Shown piece after piece: positions 2,914 through 56,522 of a stretch of 64,000 nt of DNA. Each line of letters starts with the position of its first letter. Positions within the stretch are counted from its first letter, which is position 1. The notes beneath the pieces are model-generated. The model had not been told where the DNA came from. It saw only the letters and a list, made by a program, of their open reading frames with translations, and did no database searches. The stretch is from Eledone cirrhosa (taxonomy: Eukaryota): contig OZ024766.1 of NCBI GenBank assembly GCA_964016885.1, positions 14,446,001 to 14,510,000 on the forward strand. The letters run 5' to 3'. The translations under genes and the position numbers were made by a program.

Positions 2914-4373
2914 TGATGCACATGAAGGATGACATCTGTATAAAAAGGTACAGGGAACTCGAGGCTGTAGGGTGCCTCAAAAGAGGAAGACCTAGGCAGA
3001 AGTAGGATGTAATGACAAAAGGCCAACCTGGCTCAGCTGAACCCTCTCAATGGAGATGACACAGGACTGAGATATCTGGTACTACAACATACAACAAAGG
3101 ACCAGAGTGAACCTCACAAGGTGCAAGGCATGGTGCAGCCAATTGGCCTGACATCCCTCATAATGGGACCTCTCAGCTCCCAAATTACGGTTCCCCTGTG
3201 AACAGGGTACAGCAAGGCCAGCTGGCCAGACATTCCCCAAAACAGTGCCACCCAGTTCCACACTGTAAAAGTGGTTGGTACTAGGAAGGGCATCCAACAA
3301 CTGTAAAGACACAGCCACTACATAGTCAAAGCATGAGAGAACTGAGAGAGAAACTAGACATAAGAGGGATCAGATGTAGTGTGCAGGAGAGGAGATTGTA
3401 GTGGTATGGGGTGTGTATGGAGGGTGACCGCTGTATAAATATATTTAGGGCTCTCAAAGTTGATGGTAGCTCTGGAAGACTTCGAAGGAAGTGATAAAAG
3501 CTGACCTCACACAAATTCTCAAAGGAGACGACACAGTATTGAGATCTCTGGATCATGCTGTACTTCAGAAGACCTGCCCCACCTCCCATGTAAAATGATA
3601 TGAAACAAACATGTAGAGTACACACTAATCTGCACCAATCTTCTCCCTACACCTCACCATTCACCCAGTCCACACTGTAATGTGGTTGGCATTAGGAAGG
3701 GCATCCAGCTGTAGAAACCAAACCAAAATACAGATCCATGTGAACAAGACATGTTCACATGACCTGACATGTTTCATAACATGACACCTTGTCTAACATA
3801 TCAAGTGTGAAATAACAGACGTTAAATGATGATGATTATGATGATGATATACACATATATATATATTTGTATGTATATATATGTGTGTGTGTATACAGAA
3901 ATAATATATACACTACTTAATTATATATATATATACAACATATCAAAATAAATCAAATAAATTTAACAAACGACTGAATTTACCAAAATAGAATATTTTA
4001 TTTATTTATAATTTGGTGATAAACAAATATTTGGTAAAAGTAATTCTTCTTTTTCACGCTTTCTTTCCATCCTTTTTCCACACACACACACACACATTAT
4101 ATATGTATATATATACACACACACACAAGGGTATAAAGTGGTGGTGTAAAGTGATAGAGTTGCTGCCACAATAAAATACACCTTGTTCACTCTGTAAAGT
4201 AGTCATGAGGGTTCCACAATAAAATGCACCCTGTCCACTCTGTAAAGTGGTTGTCATTGAAAACATCATCCAGCAATGTCTGGTCTTGTTCCATGACAAC
4301 ACAACCCATCCAGTTAATGCTAGAATGGAACACAGATATAAGATGATGATGATGATGATGATGATGATAGAGA

Positions 4374-4579
4374 CTAGTTTTTCTCTGAATCTAGACAACC
4401 AAGAGCCTCAAAACAATCTGCTGTCTTTAGAGCCTCTTCCAGAGTGGCTATGGTGCATTCTTCTGGCTCACATTTTTCACCCCATCTGCGTAACATATGA
4501 AAAGCCTGTTTCACAACACTCTTAGGATTGTCATGCTCTATTTTGTCAAGTTCAATAGATGGAACCTCTAATTGAATAC
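4374..4579 (-). CDS. Exon 8 (terminal): death domain, C-terminal part
   Basis: attttgcag|GT; GIQLEVPSIELDKIEHDNPKSVVKQAFHMLRRWGEKCEPEECTIATLEEALKTADCFEALGCLDSEKN*. Fits the death-fold pattern W..(G)..L.....LD.I..D.P......A..ML..W......T...L..AL. Confidence 0.85.
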
Positions 4580-7500
4580 CTGCAAAATATAAAACAATAA
4601 GAAACCAATACTACAACAACAATAACAACATTAAACAGATTAGTTATATAAAATATGTATACCACAGGTTGTTGTAAATAACAAAGTAACTAGCTGTAGA
4701 GTAATAGAAATAATTAACATAAAAATTCTAAAATATTGTTCTATGTTTCCAAGGTTACCGACAAAAATAAAGAAGTTGAAGTGAGGAGAAGAAAGAAGAA
4801 CAAGATTAAAGAAAATAGACTTGAGAAATTTATGGCAAAGAAATGGCAGAAGTTTTTGTATTGTCAGAACTGGTGAAATAGTCAGGGTTCTGCCTAAAAT
4901 CTACCAAGACATAAATGACAAGTGACAAATATTTCCTCATCATCATCATCATCATTTTACATCCTCTTTTCACTGCTTGCAAGGGTGGGATGGGTCCTAT
5001 TCATCATCTCTCCATTTGACATGGTCCTTTGTCATCTACTCTGTGAGCTTCAGCGATCTGAGGTCTGCTCTCACCACCTCTCCCCATATTTTTGTGGTCT
5101 TCATCTACTGCGTCTTCCTTCCACTGGGATTTCTTGGCACTTCATTACTCAGCAGTCACCCGCCATGCATATCACACATCCATACCAACACAGTCTTCTC
5201 TCCTGCACTCTACATCTTATCCCTCTTATACACAGTTTTTCTCTCAACTCGTCTATGCTGGGTCATTCACACACATTGACATTGCACATCCAACGGAGCA
5301 TGCTTGCTTCATTTCTCTCCGGCCGTCACATTTCCTCTGCAGTTGCTGCCCATTTCTCACTACCATGCAACATCACACATCTCACACAGCCATCATATAA
5401 CCGGCCTTTCGTCTGTAGGGAGAAACCCTTCATTGTCAACAGAGGAAGCAGCTCCCTAAACTTCTTCCAACCCGTCCTTATTCTAGATACTATGGCCTCG
5501 GAACACCCTCCTCCCTTACTAATCTGATCACCTAGGTATCAGAAGCTATCAACTACCTCTATAGATCCTACCTGCATTTGAAAAATGTGTCTATCACTGC
5601 AATCTCTGTCAAATTTCCCTGTACATCTACTGCATACGTATTTCTCCCTACCTGTCAGTTTTCCTGCTATCCCACTACATCCCTTGTGTACCCAAGATCT
5701 GCATTGCGTACATTTTATAGAATTTATGCCAACTCCTTTTCTACATATCGAACATGGCGATATCCCTGACAGAATCAGAGTTTGGTCCTCTCTTCTACTT
5801 ATAAACACTTTTGTCTTAGCTAGGTTCCCTCTCAGTCTTCTTGATTCCAACTACTGTTTCCATAGCCAGAATTTATTCTCTAGCTCCTCTACTGATTCTG
5901 CTATAAGAACCAGATCATCAGCATAGAGAAGTTCCCATGGACAGCAAGTCTTAAACTCCTCTGTTATGGCTTGGAGGACTATAATGAACAAGAGCGGACT
6001 GAGGACCGAACCCTGATGTACACCTACACATATCTGGAATTCCTTACTAAACTCCATTCCTACTCTCACTTTACTGACAGCACCCCTGTACATAACTTGG
6101 ACTGTCCTCACAAGCCATTCCCCTACACCTAGTTTCCTTAAGGACCACCAGATGACAGATCGGGGTTCTCTATCAAAGGCCTTCTCTAGGTCAACAAAAG
6201 CTAAGTATAGTGGCTTATTCTTCTCTAAGAACCTGTCTTGTAGTTGTCTCACTAAGAAGAGGGCATCCTTGCTGCTAAATTTAATGGACATGTTGAGTAG
6301 CACGAAGATGACTCTTTTGGAGTACATGATGGCTAGAGGTATGGCTTGAAGGATCAAGACTCCTACAGTTCTGTGGTGTAAGTGACTTCAAGATATCAGC
6401 CAATCATTTGATCAGGTAGACATACAAGCTAGATTAATTTTATTCTCATCAGAAAACAAATAGACAGATGGTTGTGAATATTAAATCTGTTTCCAGAGAA
6501 GGAAGCGTTTGGTAGAGAGTGTGGACAAAGGAAGACTATAACCTTAACAATAAGACTACACCATCTCATAAGACAAAGATGGCTGAAGAACGAAAGAGTA
6601 ACAATCTCTAGGAATAATGTAGGGTGGTCACACCTGGAACACCCTCCATTATAAATCTGCAGATCATGGCAGAACCGAGACTAAATAACAATAACAACCT
6701 ATCTGTAAATTTAATATGTTTCAATAAAAACAAACAAAAACATTCCCATTAACTCACATGTTTACCCCAATACACCAACAGATTTTTATTCCCTGTTTTA
6801 GAAGACAATATTAGTTATATTGTGTCTTCTAATTTATTCATTTTTACCAATTCAGTTAAAAGTAAACTTTATAGAAATCAACAAGATACTGTAATCTTAT
6901 ACTCACCAACTGCATACCAATTTTCCACTAACAGTCCTGCTACCTTCCACAGGACTTTCTCATTCGGCTTTTGAGACCCTGAAAAAATATTTCCAAGTTT
7001 TTTCATTTTACTGTAAAGATTTTCTATTCCTGTTTATAATCTATATTTTATATTTTCAGACATTCCTATAATCAGAAGTCAACTAGTGATCACAATGGCT
7101 TTAGTCAATATTTTCTCTTCTTGTTATATCAGGTTATCTGAGTATTTAGACCCACAACAAAATATATTAAACTTTATAAATATTTTCTATCTATAAAAAC
7201 ATCTTATATATTCTAACAATGCTGTAATTATCTCATTCCACTAACAGCTGATTATACATTTGTTTTTCTCATAGCTTTGTCTTTCACTTATGCCAAATCT
7301 ACAATATAGCAACACTGTCCTCTCCTCTCTGCATTTTACTAATAAATATTCTGTTTATTTTCTTCTTAATTCTAATATCAGCCAAGTTGGTTATCAAAGA
7401 CCTAACAACAAATTCATGATAGCCGACATGAAATAGGAGTAGATACACCTGCTTTCCTTGAGAAAGGTTGATGTTGGCCATCTTTAGTGTAAACTGACCA

Positions 7501-10500
7501 CATCTGTGTTCACCAGAATGTCATCTGATTCATGTAATATTTACAAATATTTACATGTCACGTGTCCTCCATAATGATACAGGATCTTATCGGTGAGCAC
7601 TGATTATTCTATACAGGTGAGAAGGAAAGTGATAACAGGTGTCCTAAAACACTGTACACTTACACAAATCCTCATTAGCTCCCTTTAACAAGTCATCTCT
7701 ACATTAATGCAGTGAAAATATCTGAAAAGGATCCATGAAATGACCCCAACATTATAATTTATCTCCTACAGACCCCTTATATAAATAGATCATAGTTTCT
7801 CAAATCTTTGCTCACCCTCTCCATCAATACAGTGGACATCAGTAGCGGGAGAAGCCAACTACCTGAACATTTGAGGAAGTAGAAGTTACACCTGTCTTTT
7901 AGACATCTGTCAGTTCTAACAATGAGTGTTCCAATTGTTTGAATAACAGAACAGTTTACTCATGTAATTAAGGTGCAAATGGCTGAGTATTCCATAGACA
8001 TGTACACCCATAGCATAATTCTCAGGGAGATTCAGTATGGCACAGTGCGTGACAAAGCTGGTCCTTTTAATTACAGGTACAGTCCATCTTGTATTATAGT
8101 GAGAGTGGCTGAGTATTCCACAGACATATGTTCTCATAACGTGATTCTAAGGGAGATTCAGTGATATGTTGTATGTGATATAGCTGGCCCATTGAATTAC
8201 AGTAACAATAACGGTCACCATTATTATAATTCTCAGGGAGATTCAGCATAACAAAGTATGAAACAAAGCTGGTCTTTAGAATTACAAATACAACTCATTT
8301 TCCCATCTAAGTAGACTGAAGTAACATGAAATAAACTGTCTTGCTCAAAGATACAATATGTTCCTGGGAATTGAACTCAGAACCTTATGATCATGAGACA
8401 AACACACTAACCACTAAGTCATGAATGGAAATATACAGACAGATTATCAAATAATTACTTACTAAATTCATCCATGGATTTATTGGTGGCTTTATTAACC
8501 TTACATGGGGGACATACAGCTCTGTAAAAGGAAATAAAGATACAACTCACCAACATTAATTTACACCAAATATTACATTGTATACAAGTTTACAGAGATT
8601 ATGTGTGAAGGGCACAACAACCTCTCTAGTATTGGTGACATGATAAAATACAACCAGTACACTCTGTAATGTGGTTGCTAATAGGAAGGGCTTCCTGTCA
8701 TACAAAACTTTCCAAACAAAGGATAGAGAGGATTCTGTAGTGGTTTCAAAGACATGACAACATCCCTAGTGCTGGTGCCATGATTAAATCAGCAGTGCCT
8801 TTCATGATGATGATGATGATGATTTATAATAAAAGGTTGGATTTGAACTTAGAACGTTCAGGACCATAACTCTATGCTGCAAAGCATGGTGTGTGACGCT
8901 CTACTGATACTGCCAATCCATAATCAATAATAATAATGAAAATTATTGTGTACAATGCTCAGGTGCACTACAACTGGTATGACCGTAAAGCCAGGTGATG
9001 GTGAGACTGAGATACTGGAATAACCAAGCTCTCTCACCAGGGAGTATCAACTGGTATGACCGTAAGGCCTGGTGATGGTGAGGCTGAGATGCTGGAATAG
9101 CCAAGCACCTTCACATAAGAGCACCATGAGATACATCAGTAAAGCCAGGTGATGGTGAGACTGAGATACTGGAATAACCAAGCAGCCTCACCACCAGGAA
9201 CATCACCTGATACATTGGTAAGTGAAGCCACCAACAAGAACAAGAGCCTCATTGTCAATGGCTACCAACTCCCCCATGAAAGTATGAAATGAATCAAACA
9301 GAATAGAAATAATTGTTGTAAACTTACTGTGAAACAGCTTCATGTATTCGTGTGTTACCAGTTCTGTCTTCCTTTACCTGTAAACCAGCTGCTGCTCCAC
9401 TTAATTTCTCCATTTTAGCTGTTAATATATATATATATATCATCATCATTTAACATCCATCTTCCATGCTAGCATGGGTTGGACGGTTTTGTTTCACTTA
9501 AGGCAAGATTTTTCGGGAGACCGTGTCCTGCTCATACAGAACTGTCCCTGGCAGGTTTTCTATGGCTGGATGACATTCCTAACACCAACCACATTTACAG
9601 TGTGGACTGGGAGCCTTTTTACCATGTCTCCTACATGACCACTTTACAATGTGGACTGGGAGCTCTTTGTTGTGTCAACAACATGACCACTTTACAGTGG
9701 TCCTCCCATTTCTATGGGAGGACAGAGTAGGGTGTGTGGAGTGGGGTGTATATTGGGTTAAGAGGTACCTACTGACTGTAGGTTTAAGTTTGTATGCCAG
9801 AGAAAGCAGGTCTCCTGTACAACTGCATAGTGCCAAAGATCTCGATCCAGTGATATTGTCTTAGAGAGGTTTAAGTGAACAAGGTCAGTTTTTATCAGCT
9901 CGTCCCAGGTTTTCCTTGGTCTACCCACTCCGTAGCTTCCATCAATGTTCATTGCCCTGCACTTTTTTATACAGCTGTTGTCCTTCATAAACATCACATG
10001 ACCATACCAACACAATCTCCACTCCAGAACACAATATTTGACACCTCTTATGCTTAGTCTCTCTCTCAATTCGTTTATGCTTTGCCATTCGCTCACATTA
10101 CTATTACACATCCATCGGAGCATGCAAGCTTCATTTCTTTCTAATCTACACAAGTCTTCAGCACACGACACCCAAGTCTAACTACCATGTAACATTGCTC
10201 TTCGTATACAAGCATCATACAATCTGCCTATCACTTTTAGAAAAAAGCCTGTTGCCGCCAACAGCGGTATTAGCTCTCTGAACTTTTTCCATCCCGTTTT
10301 AACTCTGGCTACTTCAATTTCAGAGCACCCTCCACTACTGCTGATTTTGTCACCCAGTTAACGGAAAGTGTCTACTATTTCTATAGAACCATCTGGGCAG
10401 TTGAAATGAGATAGAATCCAATAGTTCTATAGAAATCATCATCATCAGTTTTACGTCCATTCTTCCACACTAGCATGGGTTAGACAGATTGTCCTGCTGT

Positions 10501-11063
10501 GGGCGATGTTAGGTCAGGTGACCTTGTCTTGCTCATACGGGAACTGATTTTGGCTTGATTTCTACAGCTGGATGTCCATATATATATATATATATATGCA
10601 AGTGTATTTTATTAAATGTAACTTAAAATTAAAACCTTCAATGTATGATTTTTGCCTATTAAAAATAATCTAAAAAAAGGGGACACCATTGCCTATGTGA
10701 CTCAAACTGACATTTGCCTTATACAGGACATCTTTACTTACCAGTTACAATCGACATATATATATATGGAGGCATATGGCTTAGTGGTTAGAGCATTGGC
10801 CTTGCAATCGAAAGGTTGTGAGTTCAATTCTCAGTGATGTGTTGTTTCCTTGAGCAAGACACTTTATTTCAGATTGCTCCAGTTTACTCAGCTGTAGAAA
10901 TGAGATGATAGGGACTATCATTTTTGCCACAGCAAAAAAGCACCCAGCACTCACTGTAAATCATGTTGGTGTAAGGAAGGGCATCCAGCTGTAGAAATCA
11001 AGCCAGAATCAGTTCCCGTCCCACCCTTGCAAGCAGGGAAAATGCGGACGTAAAATGAAATGA

Positions 11064-11116
<53 letters not shown>

Positions 11117-14100
11117 TACATACAAGGGTGAGTCAAAATATAATGCAATTTTTGTCATAGAAAACAACATCATACTTCGGGACTGGGCATATCAAAAGAT
11201 CAAAATAACGGAGGTAAACTTTGTTCCATCATTATGCTTTTCTTATTTTTCTGTTCAAGTTCTGATGAGATCATAGCTGTGGAATAATGGTTATCATCCG
11301 AAATATATATAACAGGGACTATGTATAAACAAAGTTAATTTTAACCTATTGACTTACACTTCTTGTTTATATATATGTGGAGGATATATAAAACAGGAAA
11401 CAAGAAGGTGTAAATAGGGGCATAAATATGAGGGAAGGGAGATAATTTGACAACATAACATAACTAGTATTTAATAGAATTTAATGTTGAAATACTAAGG
11501 AGATATTTAAAGAAAAAGGAAGAGAGGTGTTAGTATTATACTTAATGGTAGAATAAAAAGTGAATATAGGAGTGAAAAGAAATAGCATGCAAAATTAATG
11601 GAGAGGGTTAATATAGGAGGAATCATTAAAATTGAAATAATTAAGGGGAGTGATGTATATTAAGACAATGGAGGAAAGATAAATAAAAGTATATTATAAA
11701 ATAAAGGGTAAGAAAATGATAGAAGAAAAGAAAAGTAAGATTATCATGTTTAATGTCCAGGCTATGTATACGAGAGTGTAAGAGGTGAAATTATTAGGTA
11801 AATGTTCCTCAAGTGATTAATTTAAGTGTAGAGTTAAGGGGAGGTCTAGGTTGAGGGTCATACATAGGTGTGAAGAAATAGAGTGAAGAAGAAAAGGAAA
11901 GACTAAAGAGATGAAAGGAAAATAGGTGTTAATAAGTTATGCTAAGGTAAAAGGAGATTCAGCAATAGGAATACTAATTATAAAGATAAAAATAAAATAT
12001 AGATAGAAATTAAAATATTTTAAAAGAAGGGGATTATAAAGATATGGTCAAAGAGTATAAAATTAATCACAAAAGGGGAAAAGGCCTAGATAGGGAGGGT
12101 TAATACTAATAAGAAATAGGATAGAGGGATATTATAGGAAATGTATTATAAATAAATAATTATAATTCTCACAACTAATCTCCTATCTCTCCTCCTTGGT
12201 TAGTTGGTACACATAATATTGATATATATATATATAATGCAAGTATACAAACAGCAATAAATGTAAAGTAACTGAGAGAGACGCTGGGTATAAGAGGGAT
12301 CAGATGCAGTATGCTAGAGTGGAGAATGTGTTGGTTTGGTCATGTGATGTATATGAAGGACAGCAGTTGTATAAAAAGGTATAAAAAGGTACAGGATGGT
12401 CAAAATTGATGGAAGCTATGAAATAGGAAGACCCAGGAAGACCTGGGATAAGGTGATAAAAGCTGACCTTGCACACTTGCACCTCTCAAAGACAATGACA
12501 CAGGATAGAGATCACTGGTGTTAAGCAGTAATATACAATACACACTTTGCCATGTCCACAGACTCATACATCTAGTAGGCACCTCTTACTGTACCCACTC
12601 CTCTCCACACTACCTGTACACTGTGAATAAAACATATCCAGCCCACACTGTAAATGGTTGTGTAAGAGCCACAACAAAAAGCACCCAGCACACATTGTAA
12701 ATGTGGTTGGCATTAGGAGGGACATCCAGCTGTAGAAGCCTAGCCAGAAACAGTTCTATGTGAGTAAAACACGGTCACCTGACGCTACTTGCATCAAATG
12801 GGACAACCCGTCTAACCCATGCTAGCATGAAAAATGGACAGTAAACGATAAAAATTTGTTTTTGTACAAGAAAACACAAATATAGGTGAAGATAGAATAA
12901 AAGTTCAAATATAAGATTTATGACTATAAACCATTTAGACAGGTTTGAATAACAGAACAGCTTACTCATAAAATTAAGGTGCAAAAGATACAATATGTTC
13001 CTGGGAATTGAACTGGGAATTGAACTTATGATCATGAGACAAACACACTAACCACTAAGTCATGAATGGAAATATACAGACAGATTATCAAATAATTACT
13101 TACTAAATTCATCCACCGTACATACAGTCATTCCACACTGTGGACAATGTTCAATTGTGGAACAACATTTTCCACAAGCCACTTTATGTGGACATGGAGT
13201 GGATGTATTGGTGGCTTTATTAATCTGACATGGAGTGGATGTATTGGTGGCTTTCTTAATCTGACATGGAGTGGATGTATTGGTGGCTTTCTTAACCTTA
13301 CATGGGGGACATACAGATCTGTAAAAGAAAATAAAGATAAAACTCACAAACGACATTAATTTACACCAAATATTACATTCTGGATTCTGTAGTGGTTTCA
13401 AAGACATGACAACATCCCTAGTGCTGGTGCCATGATTAAATCAGCAGTGCCTTTCATGATGATGATGATGATGATGATGATTTATAATAAAAGGTGGGAT
13501 TTGAACTCAGAACGTTCAGGGCCATAACTCTATGCTGCAAAGCATGGTGTGTGACGCTCTACTGATACTGCCAATCCATAATCAATAATAATAATGAAAA
13601 TTATTGTGTACAATGCTCAGGTGCACTACGACTCATCAAAGGTGCATGTATTGTACATAGAGTAATGTAGAAATATCAGGAAAGTGAACAGTGATTGAGT
13701 CAAGATACACACACACATGCGCGCATGTATGGAGGTGAGGATATCAGGTGTAGTGTTGGAGTATTTCAGGAAGGATGGAGGTGTTAAAGGATGCAGTGTC
13801 CTGACAGCTAACAACTGATGCAGGTAGTTGGTTCCATGCTTCAGTAACTCTGAGCATGAAAAGATGTTTCTGAAAGTCATGGGGTCTGTACTGTTTTCCT
13901 GCTATTTCTTGGCTTAAAGCAGAAATCAGTTGTCAAACTTCCACAACTTCTGTATTGAGGGTCTATTTTTGTTGTTGTTGTTGATGTTCTTCAACAGGAA
14001 TGGTAGGGGAAGACATGGTAGTTGGTTTGTGTTGTTGTTCAACAGCAATGGTATAGGAAGACACACAGGCCAGGGACTGAAAGGACCAATTTGGTAGCTG

Positions 14101-14730
14101 CACCTTTTCCTAGAATCCATCCATCATCGAAATAGGGTGTCTCTTTTTTTGACCTGGGATCTTTGGAATGTTTATGGCACATTGACGACAGAGAGAAACG
14201 TGACATTTACCACATTGAATCTATTTTGGAAATAGTTCTTGGGTTCAGTACATAGATGACAGACGTGATTTTCCTGGCAATCAATCTTCTATTTTGGGAC
14301 AGAGAACAGTTTTATTACACACCCCTCATCTATGGATGTCACCATAGCAATTATGTTCTGTCTGTCCATCCATACAATACAACAATAGGTAAACAAATAG
14401 ATATGTCTAAGTATAACACACTTGTTAAGGAGATCAATAAAATATATTTTCTTTCTGTTTTCCTATTCTACGTGTGTGTGTATATAAAAAGATCTACACA
14501 TGTATATATAATTAAGAGATGTATATAGGCTAGAAATGAAGTCTATGTCCAGTGTTTATAATGTAGGTACGATAGTTACTATAGTTTCTCACACACGAAA
14601 CAGGATTTCCTTGCACTTTCTGTGTGTATATATATGTGTGTGTGTGTATATATATATGTGTGTGTGTGTGTGTATCTACATATATATGTGTGTGTGTATC
14701 TAGGTATATATATATATATGTGTGTGTATC

Positions 14731-14761
<31 letters not shown>

Positions 14762-14841
14762 GGGTGTGTGTATGTGTGTGTATCTACATGTATATATATA
14801 TATAGATACACACACACACCCATATATATATATATGTAGAT

Positions 14842-14880
<39 letters not shown>

Positions 14881-17800
14881 GACACACACATACACATATA
14901 TATATATATGTGTGTGTGTGTGATCTACATATATATGTGTGTATGTGTGTGTGTATCTACATATATACATATATGTATGTGTGTGTGTGTGTGTATCTAC
15001 ATATATGTGTGTGTGTGTGTGTATATCTACATATATGTGTGTGTGTGTGTGTGTGTATCTACATATATATATATGGGTGTGTGTGTGTATCTACATATCT
15101 ACATACATATGTGTGTGTGTGTACATATGTGTGTGTGTGTATCTACATACATGTATGTGTGTGTCTGTGTGTGTATCTACATGTGTGTGTGTGTGTCTAC
15201 ATATGTGTGTGTGTGTATCTACGTATATATGTGTGTGTGTGTCTGTGTGTATCTACATATGTGTGTGTGTGTATATCTACATATATATGTGTGTGCGTGT
15301 GTGTATCTACATATATATGTGTGTGTGTGTGTATCTACATACATATATGTGTGTGTGTGTGTATCTACATACATATGTGTGTGTGTGTATATCTACATAT
15401 ATGTGTGTGTGTGTATCTACATATATGTGTGTGTGTGTATCTACATATGTGTATGTGTGTGTATCTATATATATGTGTGTGTGTGTGTATCTACATATGT
15501 GTGTGTGTGTGTATCTACATATATGTGTGTGTGTATCTACATATATATGTGTGTATGTGTGTATATCTACATATATGTGTGTGTGTGTGTATCTACATAT
15601 ATATGTGTGTGTGTGTATATCTACATATATGTGTGTGTGTGTATCTACATATGTGTGTGTGTGTGTGTGTATCTACATATGTGTGTGTGTGTATATCTAC
15701 ATATATGTGTGTGTGTGTATCTACATATGTGTGTGTGTGTATCTACATATGTGTGTGTGTGTATCTACATATATATGTGTGTGTGTGTGTATATCTACAT
15801 ATATGTGTGTGTGTGTGTGTGTATCTACATATGGGTGTGTGTGTGTGTATCTACATATCTACATATATATGTGTGTGTGTGTATCTACATACATATGTGT
15901 GTGTGTGTGTGCATATGTGTGTGTGTGTGTGTGTGTACATATGTGTGTGTGTGTATCTACATATATGTGTGTGTGTGTGTACATATGTGTGTGTGTGTAT
16001 CTACATACATATATGTGTGTGTGTGTGTACATATGTGTGTGTGTGTATCTACATACATATGTGTGTGTGTGTGTGTATCTACATATATGTGTGTGTGTGT
16101 ACATGTGTGTGTGTATCTACATACATATATGTGTGTGTGTGTGTGTGTATCTACATATATGTGTGTGTGTGTGTACATGTGTGTGTGTATCTACATAATA
16201 TATGTGTGTGTGTGTGTGTGTGTATCTACATATATATGTGTGTGTGTGTATCCACATGTGTGTGTGTGTGTATCTACATATATGTGTGTGTGTGTATCCA
16301 CATGTGTGTGTGTATCTACATATATGTGTGTGTGTATCTACATATGTGTGTGTGTGTATATCTACATATATATGTGTGTGTGTGTATATCTACATATGTG
16401 TGTGTGTGTATATCTACATATATGTGTGTGTGTGTAACTACATATATATGTGTGTATGTGTGTATATCTACATATATGTGTGTGTGTGTATCTACATATA
16501 TGTGTGTGTGTGTATCTACATATGTGTGTGTGTGTATCTACATATGTGTGTGTGTATCTACATATGTGTGTGTATCTACATATATGTGTGTGTGTATCTA
16601 TATATGTGTGTTTGTGTATCTACATATGTGTGTGTGTGTATCTACATATATGTGTGTGTGTATCTACATATGTGTGTGTGTGTGTATATCTACATATATA
16701 TGTGTGTGTGTGTGTATATCTACATATATGTGTGTGTGTGTGTGTGTATCTACATACATGTGTGTGTGTGTGTGTATCTACATATATTTGTGTGTGTGTG
16801 TACATATGTGTGTGTGTGTATCTACATACATATATGTGTGTGTGTGTGTATCTACATATATGTGTGTGTGTGTACATATGTGTGTGTGTGTATCTACATA
16901 CATATATGTGTGTGTGTGTGTATCTACATACATGTGTGTGTGTGTGTGTATCTACATATATGTGTGTGTGTACATATGTGTGTGTGTGTATCTACATACA
17001 TATATGTGTGTGTGTGTGTGTGTATCTACATATATGTGTGTGTGTGTGTATCTACATATATATGTGTGTGTGTGTATCCACATGTGTGTGTGTATCTACA
17101 TATATGTGTGTGTGTGTATCCACATGTGTGTGTGTGTGTATCTACATATATATGTGTGTGTGTGTGTGTATCCACATGTGTTTGTGTATCTACATATATG
17201 TGTGTGTGTGTATCTATATGTGTGTGTGTGTATATCTACATATGTGTGTGTGTGTATATCTACATATATGTGTGTGTGTGTATCTACATATGTGTGTGTG
17301 TGTGTATATCTACATATATGTGTGTGTGTGTGTGTATCTACATATGGGTGTGTGTGTATCTACATATCTACATATATATGTGTGTGTGTGTGTATCTACA
17401 TACATATGTGTGTGTGTGTACATATGTGTGTGTGTGTATCTACATACATATATGTGTGTGTGTGTGTGTATCTACATATATGTGTGTGTGTGTGTGTACA
17501 TATGTGTGTGTGTGTATCTACATACATATATGTGTGTGTGTGTGTGTGTGTATCTACATATATGTGTGTGTGTATGCACATATGTGTGTGTGTGTGTATC
17601 TACATGTGCGTGTATGTGTGTGTATATCTACATATGTGTGTATGTGTGTGTATATCTACATATATGTGTGTGTGTGTGTATATCTACATATATGTGTGTG
17701 TGTGTGTATCTACATATATATGTGTGTGTGTGTGTGTATCTACATATGTGTGTGTGTGTGTGTGTGTATCTACACATGTGTGTGTGTGTGTGTATCTACA

Positions 17801-20800
17801 TATGTGTGTGTGTGTGTGTGTATCTACATATGTGTGTGTGTGTGTGTGTATCTACATATATGTGTGTGTGTGTGTGTATGTACATATGTGTGTGTGTGTG
17901 TGTGTATCTACATATGTGTGTGTGTGTGTGTGTATCTACATATGTGTGTGTGTGTGTGTATCTACATATATGTGTGTGTGTGTGTGTATGTACACATGTG
18001 TGTGTGTGTGTGTATCTACATATGTGTGTGTGTGTGTGTGTATCTACATATGTGTGTGTGTATCTACATATATGTGTGTGTGTGTGTATCTACATATATG
18101 TGTGTGTGTGTGTGTATGTACATATGTGTGTGTGTGTGTGTGTATCTACATATGTGTGTGTGTGTGTGTGTATCTACATATGTGTGTGTGTGTGTGTATC
18201 TACATATATGTGTGTGTGTGTGTGTGTATGTACACATGTGTGTGTGTGTGTGTATCTACATATGTGTGTGTGTGTGTGTGTATCTACATATGTGTGTGTG
18301 TGTGTGTATCTACATATATGTGTGTGTGTGTGTGTGTATGTACACATGTGTGTGTGTGTGTGTATCTACATATGTGTGTGTGTGTGTGTGTATCTACATA
18401 TGTGTGTGTGTGTGTGTGTATCTACATATATGTGTGTGTGTGTGTATCTACATATGTGTGTGTGTGTGTGTGTGTGTATGTACACATGTGTGTGTGTGTG
18501 TGTGTACACATGTGTGTGTGTGTGTGTGTGTATATCTACATATGTGTGTGTGTGTGTGTGTATATCTACATATGTGTGTGTGTGTGTGTATCTACACATG
18601 TGTGTGTGTGTGTGTGTGTATGTACACATGTGTGTGTGTGTGTGTGTATATCTACATATGTGTGTGTGTGTGTGTGTATATCTACATATGTGTGTGTGTG
18701 TGTGTATCTACACATGTGTGTGTGTGTGTGTGTGTATGTACACATGTGTGTGTGTGTGTGTGTATGTACACATGTGTGTGTGTGTGTGTGTGTGTATGTA
18801 CACATGTGTGTGTGTGTGTGTGTATGTACACATGTGTGTGTGTGTGTGTGTGTGTATGTACACACATATGTGTGTGTGTGTGTGTATGTACACATGTGTG
18901 TGTGTGTGTGTGTATGTACACATGTGTGTGTGTGTGTATGTACACATGTGTGTGTGTGTGTGTACATGTTGTTGTTTAGACAATACTTACAGCAGTAAGT
19001 ATATGTATTAAGTCCCATCATTAAAGAGACAACATAAGGAGGCCCCATGGTGGCATCTTGACATTAATGGCTGAATAAAAACCAGAGATTATTGAGTAAA
19101 AGAAAGAAATGTTGATATTCCATATCATTGTTAACTTACTGTTCCATTGTTCCTCCTGCAGCTCTGTCACCTGGAACAGGGCTGGCATGAGACCCCAACA
19201 TCTCTATTATAGCTGGGTATCCTTCACGTTTGGCCAGTTGTAAAGCTGTCAGACCTTTGACATTTACAATACTTAAGTCTGTTTCTGGCCTTGACAGCAA
19301 CACCTCCACAACCTCTGTATCTCCCATATATACAGCCCCATGTAAAGGCGTATTACCATTACAACTCCTCACATTCAGGTCAGCTCCCCCGGCTATCAAT
19401 AGCTTTACCATGGCAACACTCCTCCCCCACCCCCCTACAGCCCAATGTAAAGGTGTTAACCCAATTCTATTTCCTTGATTGATCTGAAAATGTAAAAATA
19501 TATTAAATATGGTGGGAGTGAGAGTGAAGGGGAGACTATGTAGTAAGAGAGGGGGCGAGTGGAGGTGTGGGGAGAGAATTAACAATAGACGAGAGAGAGA
19601 GAGAGGGGAAGAGAGAGTGAGAGCGGTAAATAGAGAGTGAGTAAGACAGAGTAAAAGAGTGAGAGAGAGGGAGAAATAGAGAGCGAGGGGAGAAAAGAGG
19701 GAGAGAGAGAGGAAGAAAAGTGAGAGAGAAAGAGAGAGTGAGAAATTCGTATCTGTACCCCCCCCCCGTCCTTCTTAAATTTTTGTATTAAATAAATAGA
19801 TTAATTCACACACACACACACACACACACACGTAGACAGATACACATACACACAGAAATACATAGAAAGATACACATATATACTCACACACAGACACATA
19901 CATACATACATACACAGACATATTCGTAGACCGATACACACGTATATACACACAGACAGTAACACACATACACACACAGACAGTCACACACGGACACACA
20001 GACAGTCACACACGGACACACAGACAGACACACACATACACATACACACACACAGACAGTCACACACACACACAGACAGTCACACAGACACACACACACG
20101 GACACACAGACACAAACAAATCCATACAGAGTGGTAGTAGCAGTAAGAGTAGACAACAGTGATAGTAGGAGGAAGGTGTGACGTCATAAGATAGACGCTA
20201 CAGAAAGAAATGGTGGAAATATGTAAATGTCTCTAATTTGAGTTAAGTTTGACTTATTTCTCTCATTTAATGACAGAAATATGACAATAATCTATATATA
20301 TAATTCCCGTTCTGTGTGTGTGTAAAAGAGTTTCACTTGGAAAATATTCCATCCATCTCTGTCAAATTAAACACATAGCCAAAATAGGCTACGGTCTGTA
20401 ACATAAAGAAAAAATTATTTCATAATGATTAATTTCGAAGTCACAAACTTCGATTTTATAATCTTATAGGCTTTTGCACTAACAAATTCCATGACGGCCA
20501 TTAAAGAGAGAGAGCGTTCCTTTTACACACTTCTTAACTGTCCCCCTTCCACAACACGACGTTATGGGATGGTATGTGTATGTGCGTGTGTATATGTGTG
20601 TGTATGTGTTTGTGTGTGTATGTGTGCGTGCATGTGTGTGTGTGTGTGTGTAATTTCCATAACGGCCAGAGAGAGAAGGATGTGTGAGAAGGAGATAGAA
20701 AGAGAGGAGTGAAAGAGAGAGAGAGAGTAAAATAAAGAAAGAGAGGAGTGTGTGTGACTTAACTCTCCCCCTTCCACAACGTCACGTCTTGGGATTATGT

Positions 20801-20811
20801 GTGTGTGTGTA

Positions 20812-20843
<32 letters not shown>

Positions 20844-23761
20844 TATGTGTGTGTGTGTGTGTGTGTTTGTGTGTATGTGTGTATGTGTGTGTATGTGTGT
20901 GTGTGTATGTGTGTATGTTTGTGTGTGTATGTGTGTGTGTGTACGTGCGTATGTGTGTGCGTGTGTGCATGTGTGTGTATAAATGTGTTAATTGTAAGAA
21001 ATAACAGACGATACTTTTTATTCAAAAAATTAAACTCTAAAGCAGTTTTGATGTCATAAATCATATTTTCAAAGTGAAAATCGTCATTTCTTTAATACTT
21101 ATTCAGAGGTTGAAATATATTTACTGTTTGTCTTTTGGTTTTTAATCAAATATTTACACATTGCTCAACCGACACTGCTAAACACGATATTAGCAAAATT
21201 ATTTTGTAAGTATGAAAATCTAATATATAATTCCCGTGTAGAAAAAGCAGATGATAAAATATACTTTTTCGTCTTGCTTATTATTACAAAAATTTACACA
21301 TTGTACACAACTATTTATTTCTTTTAATTGATTTGTATCAGCTTTATTCAATTACATATTTTCGGTAGAATGCCTCGAAAAAGAAAGAGTAACATTGGAA
21401 AAAAAACAAAAAATGCTTTTGCTTTGCGTTCTTTGCGCGCAAGCGAAACAGAAGAACAATGTGTGCTACGGCGTGCTCGCAATGCTGCTTCTACCTCGAT
21501 CGCCAGAGCATTACAAACAACTGAACAAGCAGAACTCCAGCGTGCTCACAATGCTGCTTCTACTTTGAACATCAGAGCATTACAGAAAGCTGAACAAGCA
21601 GAACTCCGGCGTGCTCGCAATGCTGCTTCTAATTCCAATAGCCGTGCTTTAGAGACTGTTGACCAAAGGGCAACAAGGCTTGCGGCTGATTCTCAACGGA
21701 AAATGCGTACTTATGTCTTTCCGAGGGATTCTTCCTGTTACTGGTCTAAGAAAGGTTTTCAATACAACCCCCAAGAGGACTACGCATCCCATCCACATAT
21801 CATCATTGGTAGTATGTCAACTGTTTGCGTCCATTGTAATGCAATGAGGTGGCCAGCGGAATCTACCGGTATATGTTGCTCCAATGGAACGGTTAGATTG
21901 CCTTATTTACAAGTCGGTGCCGAACCTTTGAATTCTTTGCTGCTTGGAGACCACCCTGATTCTAAACACTTTTTCAGAAATATAAGAGCCTACAGTTCGG
22001 CTTTCCAAATGACAAGCTTTGGTCATACACCAATAAAAGATGGGAATTATATGCCCACATTTAAAGTGCAAGGCCAAATTTACCATCAAATAGAATCACT
22101 TATTCCACAAGATGGCAAAGAACACAGTTTTCTCCAGATCTACTTTATGGGCAACGGACCTGAAGAAATTGCACGAAGGGCTTCAGTTGCTAAAGGAACG
22201 ACACCTTCTCTTCTGCAGCCCCTTCAATATATGCTTCATTCCATAAACCCGTACATCACCATTTTCAAAACTGCTTTACAACGTAGAGATGCTGACAACA
22301 ATCAATACAAGGTTGTCATTCGAAATGACCGCGATCCACCAGGGCAACATCAGGGTTGCTTTAATAGACCCCAAACCGATGAAGTTGCGGTGATTATAAC
22401 ACGTCCTAATCAGAGCGCTTCAAACCGTGATATTGTTATTGAATGGCAGGACTCGCATCTTCAAAAAATAAATGAACTTCATCCCGCATATGATGCTCTC
22501 CAGTATCCATTGCTGTTCCCCTTTGGCGACGATGGCTACCGCATTGATTTGCAAAAGTGTAATCCTGTAAGTTTAATGCCTCTTACACCAGGGAAAACCA
22601 TTTCACAAATGGAATTTTATGCATTTGTGAAAAACGACGTCAACATTCTGCATAGAACACGGATGCTCCACAATCAATACTGTGTAGACATATTTGCTAA
22701 GATTGACACTGAACGCCTCCAATGGATAAGACATCATCAAAAGGAACTGCGTTCAGAAGAATACGGCAATCTACGTGACAAAGTAAACCGAAATGATCAG
22801 GCTAATGCTTCGGATGTTGGGCTTTCTGTCATTCTCCCATCATCATACACTGGAGGCCCCCGTTACATGCATGAAAAAATGCAGGATGCTCTGACCTATG
22901 TCCGCCATTGTGGCCGTCCTGATCTTTTTATCACCTTTACATGCAATCCAAAATGGTTTGACATCCAGTCTCATTTACTGTTTGTCTTTCGGTTATTAAT
23001 AAAAAAAATTACACATTGTTCAACCGACACGGCTAACGATACATTTCTCTATGTTCACATTTTAATGACACATATCTGTAAATAAAACTTGCTCTTTTTG
23101 AATACCGTCTCATTTTGTTTTATTGAAAGAGTTGATCAGGTAAAATTATCCTCCAAGTTAAACATACAACACGGAAATTGACCATTAACATTGCAGCCCT
23201 ACCAAGAACTGACACCGTCCAATGGACGGGGGTCATTTGCTAGTTAAATATAAATTAACATGTTGCCAATGGATTCTCTACATTTTATTTTGTCTCTCTT
23301 GGAAAACTATTTCCATGTGAAAAGAAAGGTTTAATTTGTCGTCTGTTTGACAGGGTCTTTATTGAGGGGGGTGCAAGACAGATGCGGTGGCAGTGTTAGT
23401 AGAAAATTACAGAGAGAGTGAGGGAGGTGTTTATTGATAGTGGCGAAGGTGGAGAACGAGAGGGAAGACAGGGAGGGGGAGGGAATGAGGGAGAGGGAGG
23501 GAACGAGAGAGAGAGAAAAAGAGAAAGAGGGATGGAAAGAAAGAGAGAGAGGTAAGAAGTTAGAGAGAATGAGGAAAGTTTATCTGTCTGTGTGGCTGTC
23601 TGTCAGTCTAGCATATAGTTGACAAGGGAGATAATCAATTGGACAAACTTGGTGATATTTCGTTTTGAAAGAACATTTTTTGAGAGAGAGAGAACGTGTG
23701 AGAGAGTGAGAGAGAGAGAGAGAGATAGAGAGAACATGTGTGAGAGAGAGAGAGAGAGAAC

Positions 23762-23800
<39 letters not shown>

Positions 23801-23830
23801 GGAGAGAGAGAGAGAGAGAGAGAGAGAACA

Positions 23831-23863
<33 letters not shown>

Positions 23864-25502
23864 ACATGTGTGAGAGAGAGAGAGAGAGAGAGAGGTAGAT
23901 AAATATATAAATAGAGTGAGGGTGAGAGATAGATAGCTAGGTAGACAGACAGATAGATAGATAAATTGCCAAGGGTAGATAGGTGGATATTATACATAAA
24001 TTGATAAATATACAATGATTTGGAAATATTTTCAGTATTTATCAATAGTGATGGTCATATTGAACAATAATCAATAGAATCAGACAAATCTACAGAGTGT
24101 ATATGTTGACCCACCTTAATAGCAGGTGTGTTGATTAACAACTGTGCAATATCTGTACAGTTGTTAAGGACGGCCATGTGGAGTGGAGTATTCCCTTCTT
24201 TATTCAGACAATTTGCATCCACTCCAGAGGACAGCAAGGATTTCACCTCTTCATAGTTTTTTCTGAAAGTAGTAGAAATAAATACAAATACACATATATA
24301 GGAAATGAAGGCACATGGCTTAGTGGTTAGTGTGTTCTACTGAAGATCATAAGGTTGTGAGTTTGAGTCCTGGGGATGGCTTGTGTCCTTGAGCAAGACA
24401 CTTTATTACATGATGATCCAGTCTACTCAGCTAGCAAAACTGAGTTGTACCAGTAATACAAAGGGTCAGCCTTGTTAATCTGCTTATCCTTGAGAACTAC
24501 AATAAAGGTACACATTCATGTCTGTAAAGTGGTTGGTGATAGGAAGGGCATCCAGACCAGGATACTGGAATAGCCTAGCACCCTCATCTAGGAACATCAA
24601 CTGATACATCAGTAAGGACCAGTGATGGTGAGGCTGAGATGCTGAAAGAGCCAAGCACCTTCACCGAGGAGCATCAAGTGACACATCAGTAAAGCATGGT
24701 GATGGTGAAACTAAGATACTGCAATAGCCAAGTACCCTCACCTATGAGTATCAACTGATATATCAATAAAGCATGGTGATGGTGAGGCTGAGATACTGGA
24801 ATAGCCAAGCACCTTTACATAAGAGCACCATGAGATACATCAGTGAAGCCAAGTGATGGTGAGACTGAGATACTGGAATAACCAAGTTCTCTCACCAGGG
24901 AATATCAACTGGTATGACCGTAAGGCCTGGTGATGGCGAGGCTGAGATGCTGGAATAGCCAAGCACCTTTACATAAGAGCACCATGAGATACATCAGTAA
25001 AGCCAGGTGATGGTGAGACTGAGATACTGGAATAACCAAGCTCTCTCACCAGGGAGTATCAACTGGTATGACCGTAAGGCCTGGTGATGGTGAGGCTGAG
25101 ATGCTGGAATAGCCAAGCACCTTTACATAAGAGCACCATGAGATACATCAGTAAAGCCAGGTGATGGTGAGACTGAGATACTGGAATAACCAAGCTCTCT
25201 CACCAGGGAGTATCAACTGGTATGACCGTAAGGCCTGGTGATGGTGAGGCTGAGATGCTGGAATAGCCAAGCAGCCTCACCACCAGGAACATCACCTGAT
25301 ACATTGGTAAGTGAAGCCACCAACAAGAACAAGAGCCTAATTGTCAATGGCTACCAACTCCCCCATGAAAGTATGAAATAAATCAAACAGAATAGAAATA
25401 ATTGTTGTAAACTTACTGTAAAACAGCTTCATGTAGTGCTTTGTTACCAGTTCTGTCATCCTTTAGCTGTAAACTAGCTGCTGCTCCACTTAATTTCTCC
25501 AT
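4374..25502 (-). CDS. Spliced gene: ankyrin repeats x5 + C3HC4 RING + death domain (~406 aa; 356 aa if exons 5-6 are skipped)
   Basis: Manually joined exons 25502-25417, 24262-24115, 19483-19140, 13318-13104, 9418-9328, 8521-8463, 6978-6907 and 4579-4374. All introns are GT-AG, phases 2,0,2,1,2,1,1 are consistent, and the total is 1221 nt ending in TAG. Confidence 0.8.
4935..6270 (-). mobile_element. RTE-clade LINE fragment (RT plus PHD-like insert)
   Basis: LYLAFVDLEKAFDR, GVHQGSVLSPLLF, ELLYADDLVL; Cys-rich CSICRKGVGINSIKCTQCRSWVHKGCSG; stops present; (GAT)n tail near 4935-4955. Confidence 0.9.
6907..6978 (-). CDS. Exon 7: death domain, N-terminal helices
   Basis: attttttcag|GG; (R)SQKPNEKVLWKVAGLLVENWYAV(G); donor G|gtgagt; phase 1-1. 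Confidence 0.8.
8463..8521 (-). CDS. Exon 6: internally deleted duplicate of the RING exon
   Basis: cttttacag|A GCT GTA TGT CCC CCA TGT... = AVCPPCKVNKATNKSMDEF; donor A|gtaagt; same phases as exon 4. Confidence 0.6.
9328..9418 (-). CDS. Exon 5: diverged duplicate of exon 1
   Basis: Same 91-nt length and splice sites as 25417-25507; (T)KMEKLSGAAAGLQVKEDRTGNTRIHEAVS(Q); in frame. Confidence 0.6.
9440..10410 (-). mobile_element. RTE LINE 3' fragment with tail
   Basis: LERNEACMLRWMC, WRLCWYGHVM, GRPRKTWDEL; 3' UTR motif ggttggtgttaggaa..catccagc and (GAT)n. Confidence 0.85.
10768..10905 (+). mobile_element. tRNA-derived SINE family B
   Basis: A box TGGCTTAGTGG, B box GTTCAATTC, core TCCTTGAGCAAGACACTTTATTTC. 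Copies at about 24308, 48626, 50350 and 8310-8420(-). Confidence 0.75.
13104..13318 (-). CDS. Exon 4: C3HC4 RING finger (IAP/MIB spacing) with internal 36-bp triplication
   Basis: cttttacag|A; SVCPPC-[KVKKATNTSTPC]x3-PHKVACGKCCSTIEHCPQCGMTVCTVDEF; donor A|gtaagt, phase 1. Confidence 0.85.
14620..18968. repeat. 4.3-kb compound microsatellite: (GT)n punctuated by ATCTACATAT or ATGTACAC
   Basis: Direct inspection; source of the spurious CVY ORFs. Confidence 0.97.
19140..19483 (-). CDS. Exon 3: ankyrin repeats 3-5
   Basis: acattttcag|ATC; motifs GLTPLHWAV, GNTPLHGAV, GLTALQLA; donor CA|gtaagt, phase 2. Confidence 0.92.
20291..23243 (+). mobile_element. Helitron, internally deleted, both termini present
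   Basis: 5' A|TCTATATATATAAT at 20291; 3' hairpin CCGTCC-aat-GGACGG (23215-23229) followed by CTAG|T at 23240-23243; contains a Rep-Hel N-terminal ORF. Confidence 0.85.
21370..23085 (+). pseudogene. Truncated Helitron Rep-helicase ORF (N-terminus to Rep motif 1)
   Basis: MPRKRKS start, basic coiled repeats, Cys cluster CVHC...ICCSNG, FKVQGQIYH, YDALQYPLLFPFG, ILPSSYTGGPRYM, RPDLFITFTCNPKW. Homology ends near 22980; no HUH motif or helicase. Confidence 0.9.
24115..24262 (-). CDS. Exon 2: ankyrin repeats 1-2
   Basis: ctactttcag|A; KNYEEVKSLLSSGVDANCLNKEGNTPLHMAVLNNCTDIAQLLINTPAIK; donor AAG|gtgggt, phase 0. Confidence 0.9.
24560..25305. repeat. 77-bp minisatellite with A/B alternation (154-bp higher-order repeat)
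   Basis: GATGG(T/C)GAG(A/G)CTGAGAT recurs at 24855, 24932, 25009, 25086, 25163 and 25240; a shorter paralog lies at about 8972-9220. Confidence 0.9.
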
Positions 25503-25507
25503 TTTAG
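25417..25507 (-). CDS. Exon 1 (ATG at 25502): start of ankyrin repeat 1
   Basis: attaacag|CTAAAATG...; translates MEKLSGAAASLQLKDDRTGNKALHEAVL(Q); donor CA|gtaagt, phase 2. Confidence 0.8.
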
Positions 25508-27666
25508 CTGTTAATATATATATATTTATATATATACACACACATGTATGCATATACATATGCGAGTGTGTTTTATTAAACGTAACTTAACGTTAAAAGC
25601 TTAAATGTAAGATTTTTGCCTATGAAAATTAATCTAAAAAAAGTGGACACCATTGCCTATGTGACTTAAACTCACATTTGCCTTATACAGGACATCTGTG
25701 CTTACCAGTTGCAATCAACATATATATATATATATATATACATATATGTATATATATATATATATATATATACACTCCCGTCCCACTAACCCCACCTCCA
25801 CCGCCATCTACACCACCCCTTTGATGTAAAGCTATGTTTGTACCACAACATCCAGTCCTAAATAAATGAGGTTGTGTAGTTGTCACGACAAAAAAACACA
25901 GTCCACACTGTAATGTGGCCGTGTAGGTAACACGGTAAAAACCTCCCAGTTCCACACTGTAAACGTGGTTGGTGTTAGGAAGGGTACCCAGCCGTAGAAA
26001 ACCCGCCAGACAGTCCTGAGCAAGACAACCAACCTCGCCTCAAGTGGGACAATTCCCGTCCAGACCCATGCTAGCATGGAAAATGGACGTTAAACGATGA
26101 TGATGATAATGATATATATATATATGGGTGTGTATGTGTATGTATATATATATGTGTATGTATGTGTATATATATATGTGTATGTATGTATGTGTTGATA
26201 TCTGTTTGTATGTAGTATATATGGACTGTAGATATATTTACATATAGGGAAGTGAATATGTGAGCCAGCATGTCCCCCCCCCCCACCCTTCCTGTCCCAA
26301 ACCAATATCAACAACACATCTTTGACAAATCTTCCCAAACTATCCTTCTTTTCTCTTTTTCCTGTCATCCCATTCTTATCAAAAGACATGTATCTTACAC
26401 CTCATTAAAACCCAGACAAGCACCTAAATTCATCTTTGATATAGAAATTTGTAGAAGATATTCTTTATGGATTTGGAAGAGTTGATTCAGCTATGCCATT
26501 ATATACTCATCAAAGGTCAGCTAATGAAATAAAACCAGCAGGAGAGTATGTTTACAACTACCTTCTCAAACACCCTTATCTTACAACCTCACCATTTTCT
26601 GAGTGTATATATGTGTGTGTATGAGTGTATGTGTGTGTGTGTATGCTTTAATTCCTATGGACCTTCATCATCATCAACACTCATTAACACCACATGCCAA
26701 CCCCAGACACATCCAAATCTCTCTCTTATATATAGTCACACATTTCAACACAACCTGATCTCAGTTTGACAATCTCCACAGACAGAAGAATGCGAGAAAG
26801 TTCTCCAACCCAAGTTAACCAGGAATCTATAAAATTCTTCCCACCAAAGTTAAAGAACTTACTGGATCTATCAACTCATAATATTATAATATTATAAAAA
26901 TTAAATCAAACATGTTTTAACACTACAAATGACATCATTCTTTTCCTTTTTTTCAAATATACCTAACTGTACCAAGGATCTCACACATTTTCCAATATAT
27001 ATATACATATATATACACATACAAGGGTGAGTCAAAATATAATGCAATTTTTGTCATAGAAAACATACTTCGGCACTGGGCATATCAAAAGATCGAAATA
27101 ATGGAGGTAAACTTTGTTCCATCATTATCTTTTCCTGCTTATTTCAAGATTCAGTTCTATTAAAATGTCCAAATGTCAATACTTCCAGCTACGATATAAT
27201 GGACGCTATATCACATCGCTTATATTTCCATCACTAATTTTCTCCTTTTTCGTTTTCATAAAATTTCACCATGATGCAGTTTATATATAATATCATCTTT
27301 TTTAAATGTATCATGGATTACTTTACTGATTACAGAAGAAAGTGTAACACACTCTCTTCAATTTCTGTGGATATTGTCAATTACAATTTTATTTGAGGTA
27401 TCATATCTACATGTATGTATATTTGTGTATAATATCTATATACACACTACACATGCCAGCAGAAAACCAACCGAAGGGTGTATATAACAGCAACAACAAC
27501 AAAACAAGACAAAGATTACCAGGTAACTTACTTTTTCGTCTATTTTACATTGTTTAGTCTTATATCACTTTCCACATTTTACGTATGTGTGTGTATTTAT
27601 ATATATATATATATATATATGCTGTGGTTATCCCGATCTTACTCGGGATCTCTCACACACACACAT

Positions 27667-48575: not shown

Positions 48576-48737
48576 CTGTATATATATATATATATATATA
48601 CTGTATATATACAGTATATATATGTGGAGGCACATGGCTTAGTGGTTAGAACATTGGCCTTGCAATCGAAAGGTTGTGAGTTCAATTCTCAGACCGGGTA
48701 ATGTGTTGAAGTTATAGCTCTGGCTTTCATCCTAACA

Positions 48738-49480: not shown

Positions 49481-49522
49481 GGACTGGTGAGAGATAAAAG
49501 CTGAGATATGAAAATAACTAAC

Positions 49523-49660
49523 CTTTCTGACAACTGTTTCCTTCATAACCTGGAGCACATCTACCCCTTGAACAGATCCCTAATTCCACATTACACCTGT
49601 TGTTATCTTCACAATGACACACCTGATCACAGTTGGCACCAAGTCTTCCACTACTGCACA
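49523..49660 (-). CDS. EGF-like exon (SREC/MEGF10/Ced-1 type), copy A
   Basis: cctgttacag|TG TGC...; CSSGRLGANCDQVCHCEDNNRCNVELGICSRGRCAPGYEGNSCQK; donor G|gttagt; 138 nt, phase 1-1, 8 Cys. Confidence 0.8.
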
Positions 49661-52007: not shown

Positions 52008-52079
<72 letters not shown>

Positions 52080-52190
52080 CTCAGAGTACTCAATACTTAG
52101 GGTAGAAGAGTGGGTAATAGGAAAAGAGCCAGGAACCCAACAGCTGAGCTCTGGCCAGAGATCAGCAGTTGGGGTCCTGACTCTTTTCCT

Positions 52191-52249
<59 letters not shown>

Positions 52250-52388: not shown

Positions 52389-52429
<41 letters not shown>

Positions 52430-56491: not shown

Positions 56492-56522
<31 letters not shown>

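Follow-up and report, generated by a model that had tools for sequence, protein, structure and literature searches.

What becomes of a gene when a second, truncated version of its own front end lies inside it? The question is raised by a 64,000-nucleotide stretch of the Eledone cirrhosa genome (contig OZ024766.1, positions 14,446,001 to 14,510,000; hereafter the window), AT-rich eukaryotic DNA laden with repeats, whose minus strand carries a gene for ankyrin repeats, a RING finger and a C-terminal death domain. Between the RING exon and the death-domain exons lies a gutted copy of the gene's front, and a first-pass annotation of the letters had proposed that this remnant could start a death-domain-only decoy protein. 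The duplication is real. This locus, or one of its sister copies, likely makes a short death-domain protein that would lack the ubiquitin-ligase part. As to its origin, the explanation placed first, at about an even chance, is that the tandem second copy is an unselected, still-spliced by-product of copy turnover in a multi-copy family.

The parent gene is read from exons E1 to E6. E1 (25417-25507, ATG at 25502), the first recognisable coding exon, holds half an ankyrin repeat and matches the family profile weakly. E2 (24115-24262) and E3 (19140-19483) carry the ankyrin repeats of the long form, both above the Pfam cut-off (Ank_4, 2e-11, and Ank, 8.6e-21), and are absent from the copy. E4 (13104-13318) is the RING-finger exon, E5 (6907-6978) the first death-domain exon, and E6 (4374-4579) the main death-domain exon with the stop codon (Pfam Death, 25.5 bits, cut-off 22.6). 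These last two exons are present once in the window.

Self-comparison of the window identifies 7937-11242 as a collinear, rearranged copy of 12943-27134, on the same strand, with block identities of 87-96% and E values of 1e-11 to 1e-164 for the blocks that the first-pass annotation had named. The copied blocks are 7937-7979 (93% identical to 12943-12985), 8347-8474 (95%, 12984-13115), 8475-8579 (92%, 13272-13379), 8730-8975 (96%, 13382-13633), 8971-9440 (87% with a minisatellite counted in, 25060-25529), 10577-10767 (88%, 25541-25731) and 11096-11242 (90%, 26995-27134). All the duplications claimed earlier are present in this dot-plot-type check, which that annotation had itself suggested, and they lie in order and on one strand. 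A possible further upstream block, 11303-11376, is collinear with its single other match in the window (30472-30546, 89%). At the downstream side, the copied start of intron 4 spans 7937-8462, and likeness to the upstream copy stops at 7937/12943. Eight blocks were tested for copies within the window: four have exactly one other copy there, one has an extra 47-nt match, two overlap dispersed repeats, and the eighth is 11303-11376.

The deletion junction (8960-8985) fuses intron-3 sequence to an intron-1 minisatellite: at 8970, position 13629 is joined to a repeat of 77/154 bp. Because the break lies in this minisatellite, its upstream side may be 24906, 25060 or 25214, and the loss 11,277, 11,431 or 11,585 bp, depending on the unit. 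The fusion near 8970 with a loss of about 11.4 kb, as originally proposed, is therefore borne out. Divergence between the two halves is patchy: four blocks differ by 0.6-2.6% and another four by 6-12% (chi-square P=1e-5), as either gene conversion or a chimeric origin would give.

Upstream sequence was duplicated together with the exons. The block 11104-11242 copies 27003-27134 and resembles a DNA-transposon end, while 10588-10767 (minus strand) copies 25552-25731 and contains a candidate GTAAG donor after 10742, with its parental equivalent at 25706. The gap between collinear blocks at 9441-10587 is a retroelement-derived insertion of 1,147 bp with LINE-like open frames and repeat matches, lying 22 nt upstream of the 9418 acceptor of the remnant first exon. 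At the head of a dispersed repeat, 10775-10836 on the plus strand gives a marginal Rfam tRNA match (30.6 bits against a cut-off of 29) and is likely a tRNA-derived SINE.

Two remnant exons survive in the copy, both on the minus strand. R1 (9328-9418, ATG at 9413) is the counterpart of E1, and R4 (8463-8521) that of E4, 156 nt shorter: it retains the first CxxC of the RING, and the remainder is deleted in frame. The earlier description of the copy was right about the loss of both ankyrin exons but missed this RING deletion, which is the domain loss that best motivates a dominant-negative reading. R1 and R4 keep their AG and GTAAGT splice sites. The predicted products, which share one native stop, are 406 aa with both remnants included, 356 aa with both skipped, and 140 aa from the ATG at 9413; R1 alone or R4 alone behind E4 (13104) would shift the frame. 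Splice sites and open frames alike agree with what had first been reported. Since E1 ends in phase 2 and E4 starts in phase 2, the 11.4-kb loss leaves the frame intact at no cost. A whole death domain lies in the 140-aa product, whose residues 55-137 correspond to positions 2-84 of a profile of 85 positions drawn from 16 relatives (104 bits), and there is no RING pattern in it; R1 has no Pfam match. The earlier portrayal of this product as essentially a death domain is accurate.

Are the remnants spliced? Contigs of four sequencing runs (X1, X2, X5 and X6, out of 10 listed) were compared with 4300-14000; they give no transcript starts, and 15 of 4,139 joints were listed. In X1, a joint at 6977-8462 (8463>6978) has CT..AC ends, i.e. 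GT-AG on the minus strand, and a depth of 782. A second joint at 4577-6905 (6907>4579), with the same ends, reaches 2125. Both have zero depth in X2, X5 and X6. The kind of run is itself inferred: X1 is taken as RNA because its CT..AC joints fall exactly at predicted exon ends. The shorter side of the 6977-8462 joint has 27 letters, whereas R4 and E4 have just 12 nt in common; the exon spliced to E5 is therefore of the R4 type. None of the joints 13104>6978, 13104>9418 and 9328>8521 figures among the 15 of 4,139 listed, and the listed X5 and X6 pieces, which might have told of the remnant in related organisms, stop short of R1 and R4. As to whether the remnant exons occur in transcripts, the point on which the first-pass annotation had let its proposal depend, an R4-type exon does appear, joined to E5, but its assignment to this copy does not follow.

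A loose end at 8519 occurs in two contigs. In one it equals the end of E3 (18 of 18 letters); in the other it is a 12-letter piece whose last 10 letters match the R1 end at 10 of 10 positions (E1, 9 of 10). Both are joined to an exon starting with the two letters of E4, not those of R4. An R1-type exon is thus joined to an exon-4 start with the ankyrin exons skipped, though in a sister copy, another allele or a back-splice, and not exactly in the layout of the window. E4 and R1 together measure 306 nt, and a back-splice 9328>13318 would close them into a circle in which one frame is free of stops. Such a circle is compatible with the loose end, although a sister copy or allele is simpler.

X1 also contains pieces with 0-1 differences from the window over 9725-9946 and 11137-12759, at depths of 230-340, and this cover fits transcription entering from upstream. 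RNA-like cover with the window's letters running through 9.7-12.8 kb, upstream of 9413, tells against the separate start at 9413 that had been suggested.

That the gene is one of a multi-copy family, with truncated forms common in it, had been overlooked. In three X1 contigs, an R4-type end is followed directly by a variant of E5 with differences at 4 of 30 letters. Over intron 4, the main X2 contigs have depths of 342-412 and differ from the window, whose letters at 7758, 7788, 7813 and 7868 are left with a depth of 5-20; X6 has one piece at 17x and others at 209-325x in the same intron. Contig depth, which is not copy number, suggests on the order of ten or more near-identical sister copies. 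Given several such copies, the R4-type splice cannot be pinned to this one. The window's letter at 6936 gives Gly in E5, and the listed X2, X5 and X6 contigs, together with two X1 contigs (depth 813/2938), carry another letter; E5 therefore varies among copies or alleles.

The gene belongs, on sequence grounds, to an Octopus-expanded ankyrin-RING-death-domain family. Its death-domain exon finds 42 relatives among 1.84 billion representatives, 24-52% identical; identities this low make an octopod outside the three annotated species the likely host. Of 30 that were looked up, 27 are from Octopus, one from Argonauta and one from Branchiostoma, and a profile search added 35 matches, all with Octopus names (one name partial, 'Oct'). 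Many relatives go by the name 'MIB2-like' and combine ankyrins with a single RING and a death domain at the C terminus; the linkers between RING and death domain vary widely in relatives and are often repeat-built. The best solved-structure match of the family profile is the RIPK1 death domain (9e-12), a signalling-type domain. Other routes were less productive: word-based protein searches returned, for E3, 107 generic ankyrin proteins, none of them a close relative, and for E6 no relative among 23 candidates; a single-sequence search of the PDB returned nothing below E 0.066; and ESM Atlas matches of at most 0.88 led to death-domain clusters (a lead only).

The E4 RING has all eight ligands. 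The spacing C-x2-C-x11-C-x-H-x3-C-x2-C, kept in 12 of 12 relatives, becomes x35 in E4, where 3.2 copies of a 36-nt unit at 13191-13305 (96% matches) lengthen the first zinc loop to 35 residues, against the usual 11. The RING scores 21 bits on the family profile and 16.7 on Pfam, below its cut-off of 27. The death domain of the long form reaches 101 bits on a profile made solely from 16 relatives, and nests among RING-bearing members on a long branch. From its domain layout, the long form would be a ubiquitin ligase that docks through its death domain. Its alignments with the best relatives begin only at residues 15-55 of the latter, so the original start may be neither ATG 25502 nor, by the same token, ATG 9413. 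Despite the candidate upstream donors at 25706 and 10742, no upstream coding exon was found within the window by tblastn or profile. The window likewise yielded no further ankyrin, RING or death-domain exon (tblastn with 47 relatives; 16-protein profile on 2,505 six-frame pieces). Pfam on seven exon stretches returned only Ank, a weak RING and Death, and an upstream exon could still lie beyond the window.

Short forms appear elsewhere in the family. From 88 proteins fetched, 84 of them with a death domain, the removal of 22 isoforms or cluster mates and 28 incomplete domains left 34 non-redundant relatives with a whole death domain. Twelve of these 34 are without RING and ankyrin motif, though they are predicted models, some of them probably incomplete. 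Such models are scattered over the tree, where the starred branches force at least five changes of that state, and compared with shuffles, of which 126 of 500 are as low, they are not clustered. Four RING-less death-domain proteins from Octopus (P0183, P0184, P0186 and P0190) form a well-supported clade (99/100); two of them are named RIPK1-like, and they are candidate partners of the ankyrin-RING-death-domain family.

Turnover among copies would account for these features as follows. Unequal recombination or tandem duplication among sister copies may have made the second unit, which lost both ankyrin exons in the 11.4-kb deletion and the RING in a second one, both in frame. The duplicated upstream blocks likely carry a promoter copy that would give the 140-aa form, while read-through from E4 would give the 406-aa form; either way, transcripts of the second front end likely run on into E5 and E6, which serve the long form as well. 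Any short protein would incidentally compete for the partners of the death domain, since it has these last two exons in common with the long form.

Several observations weigh against this turnover explanation. At a depth of 782, next to 2125 for the last junction, the R4-type splice is plentiful and far from trace level, and no E4>E5 joint figures among the 15 of 4,139 listed, though a joint of depth 311 does. The deletion in R4 takes out exactly the catalytic part. The frame, the ATG and all four splice sites survive, which a neutral copy manages in only 9-15% of simulations. Moreover, X1 counts as RNA only by its joints, the number of sister copies is read from depth, and the death-domain-only models of other octopuses may be incomplete annotations.

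The sequence of R1 itself shows no sign of constraint or purifying selection. It differs from E1 at 8 of 91 nt, all eight changes being non-synonymous (P=0.14 under neutrality) and seven residues being altered. The death-domain exons, common to short and long forms, are uninformative on selection for the short one. Simulating a neutral copy with the observed changes kept frame and ATG in 18% of cases, before splice sites are counted, and the joint survival of frame and splice sites favours selection mildly at best. For R1, positive selection was also weighed. The exon differs at 8.8% against 2.0% in downstream introns (P=0.002), but the idea is rejected since the upstream blocks are equally diverged (8.3%, P=0.83) and the cluster of changes is not unusual in a scan (P=0.18).

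Among the alternatives, the one that survives best is that the remnant is a selected, separately started unit, whose 140-aa protein caps or competes at the death-domain complex recruiting the ligase. This is possible but unlikely. The whole death domain of the product, the in-frame removal of both ankyrins and RING, and the duplication of the upstream blocks together with the remnant exons are all as a decoy would have them, and the abundant R4-type splice, the R1-type end joined to an exon-4 start and the RIPK1 match of the family profile add to its appeal. In contrast, the lack of any sign of purifying selection in R1, an X1 cover that fits transcription from upstream and the exact 9328>8521 joint not being among those listed all count against it. 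There is precedent for inhibitors of this kind: CARD-only (CARD16/17/18) and PYD-only (POP1-3) proteins are described as born of duplication, with competitive binding as their proposed mode of inhibition (PMC13148956; PMC3056782). Like them, the 140-aa form is a single death-fold domain left after duplication and effector loss. However, CARD- and PYD-only proteins are separate genes with their own domain copy and tested inhibition, whereas the 140-aa form shares its exons, carries a 54-residue leader and is predicted only. Since its fold is Pfam Death and not CARD or PYD, it is no COP or POP, but at most a protein working alike. It also fits the size and single intact interaction domain of microProteins, which are described as single-domain proteins under 20 kDa related to larger proteins (PMC9638782). 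microProteins are, however, defined by demonstrated interference with a complex, and the 140-aa form is a candidate at most.

Another explanation, rather unlikely, treats R1 and R4 as a paired cassette used in read-through transcripts only, inserting a 50-aa spacer between RING and death domain (406 instead of 356 aa) and making no short protein. The phase-1 end of E4 fits the phase-1 start of R1, the frame survives only when both remnants are used together, RNA-like cover lies between E4 and R1, and the linkers at this place are variable in relatives. It counts weakly against the cassette that the 13104>9418 joint does not figure among the 15 of 4,139 listed, and the R1 acceptor, adjacent to the retroelement insertion, has a weak pyrimidine tract (0.44).

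Neither 8970 nor 12942 is bridged by any of the contig pieces listed, which leaves their arrangement along a single DNA molecule without independent confirmation. An assembly mis-join of sister loci or haplotypes, setting the front of a long gene (E1-E4) against a separate, real short gene (R1-R4-E5-E6), would gain from this gap, from the signs of many near-identical copies, from the minority standing of the window's intron-4 letters in X2 and from the patchy divergence, but it is improbable: the halves share collinear blocks with independent insertions and deletions, like real tandem copies, gene conversion also yields patchy divergence, and X1 pieces tile 11137-12759 nearly gap-free.

The nearest known proteins to the long form are octopus models named 'E3 ubiquitin-protein ligase MIB2-like' (XP_029652081.1, CAI9744078.1 and XP_014780589.2), with the same domain order, RING spacing and death-domain subfamily. 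They are 26-33% identical over the 356-aa model and up to 49% in the death domain. These are automatic annotations only, and protein searches found no near-identical protein. The long form of the window is unlike them in starting about 15-55 residues in, in its stretched RING loop and in its internal gutted copy. Mammalian MIB2, which ubiquitylates RIPK1 and cFLIPL via its RING (PMC7815719), likewise has ankyrin repeats followed by RING. [quoted passage not shown] By contrast, the exons found for the window gene encode a single RING and a death domain at the C terminus, but no MIB region; judged by those exons, it is not a Mind bomb (MIB1/MIB2) orthologue.

A full-text literature search, which covered few subscription journals and no supplements (gene-family tables of octopus genome papers might list such a family), returned no paper about the octopus ankyrin-RING-death-domain family by title or abstract start, and one on death domain-only or decoy proteins returned unrelated papers only. 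Internal duplications as such are already well known, and the finding as it stands is one truncated copy in a fast-turnover family. Should the short form prove to be a kept inhibitor, it would represent an invertebrate death-domain counterpart of the primate CARD- and PYD-only proteins, observed at an early stage and built in an unusual way, with shared domain exons and a second front end. It would also open the little-studied question of how RIPK/death-domain signalling is controlled in cephalopods. A broader conjecture is that an as yet undescribed, expanded octopod family of ankyrin-RING-death-domain ubiquitin ligases repeatedly spawns death-domain-only brakes, and that here the brake sits inside its parent, with a duplicated promoter, gutted first exons and borrowed death-domain exons, so that promoter choice would switch between ligase and inhibitor of identical interaction surface; we consider this doubtful. 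Even if the copy is debris, the dozens of Octopus gene models with an ankyrin-RING-death-domain layout merit attention.

The remainder of the window holds further repeats. A segment of about 4.5-5.3 kb is present in at least three tandem copies at 48700-64000, with 93-98% identity and no match to the ankyrin-RING-death-domain family. Within the parent gene, intron 2 contains a Helitron fragment (21370-22980, plus strand; Pfam Helitron_like_N, 2.5e-31) and intron 3 a degenerate TG/TA microsatellite of about 4.5 kb (14470-18970). Upstream of E1, an inverted repeat pair about 4 kb apart (27276-27480 and 31309-31521, 85%) encloses a LINE-like open frame (27433-28506) along with a minisatellite of 21-bp units (29335-30320).

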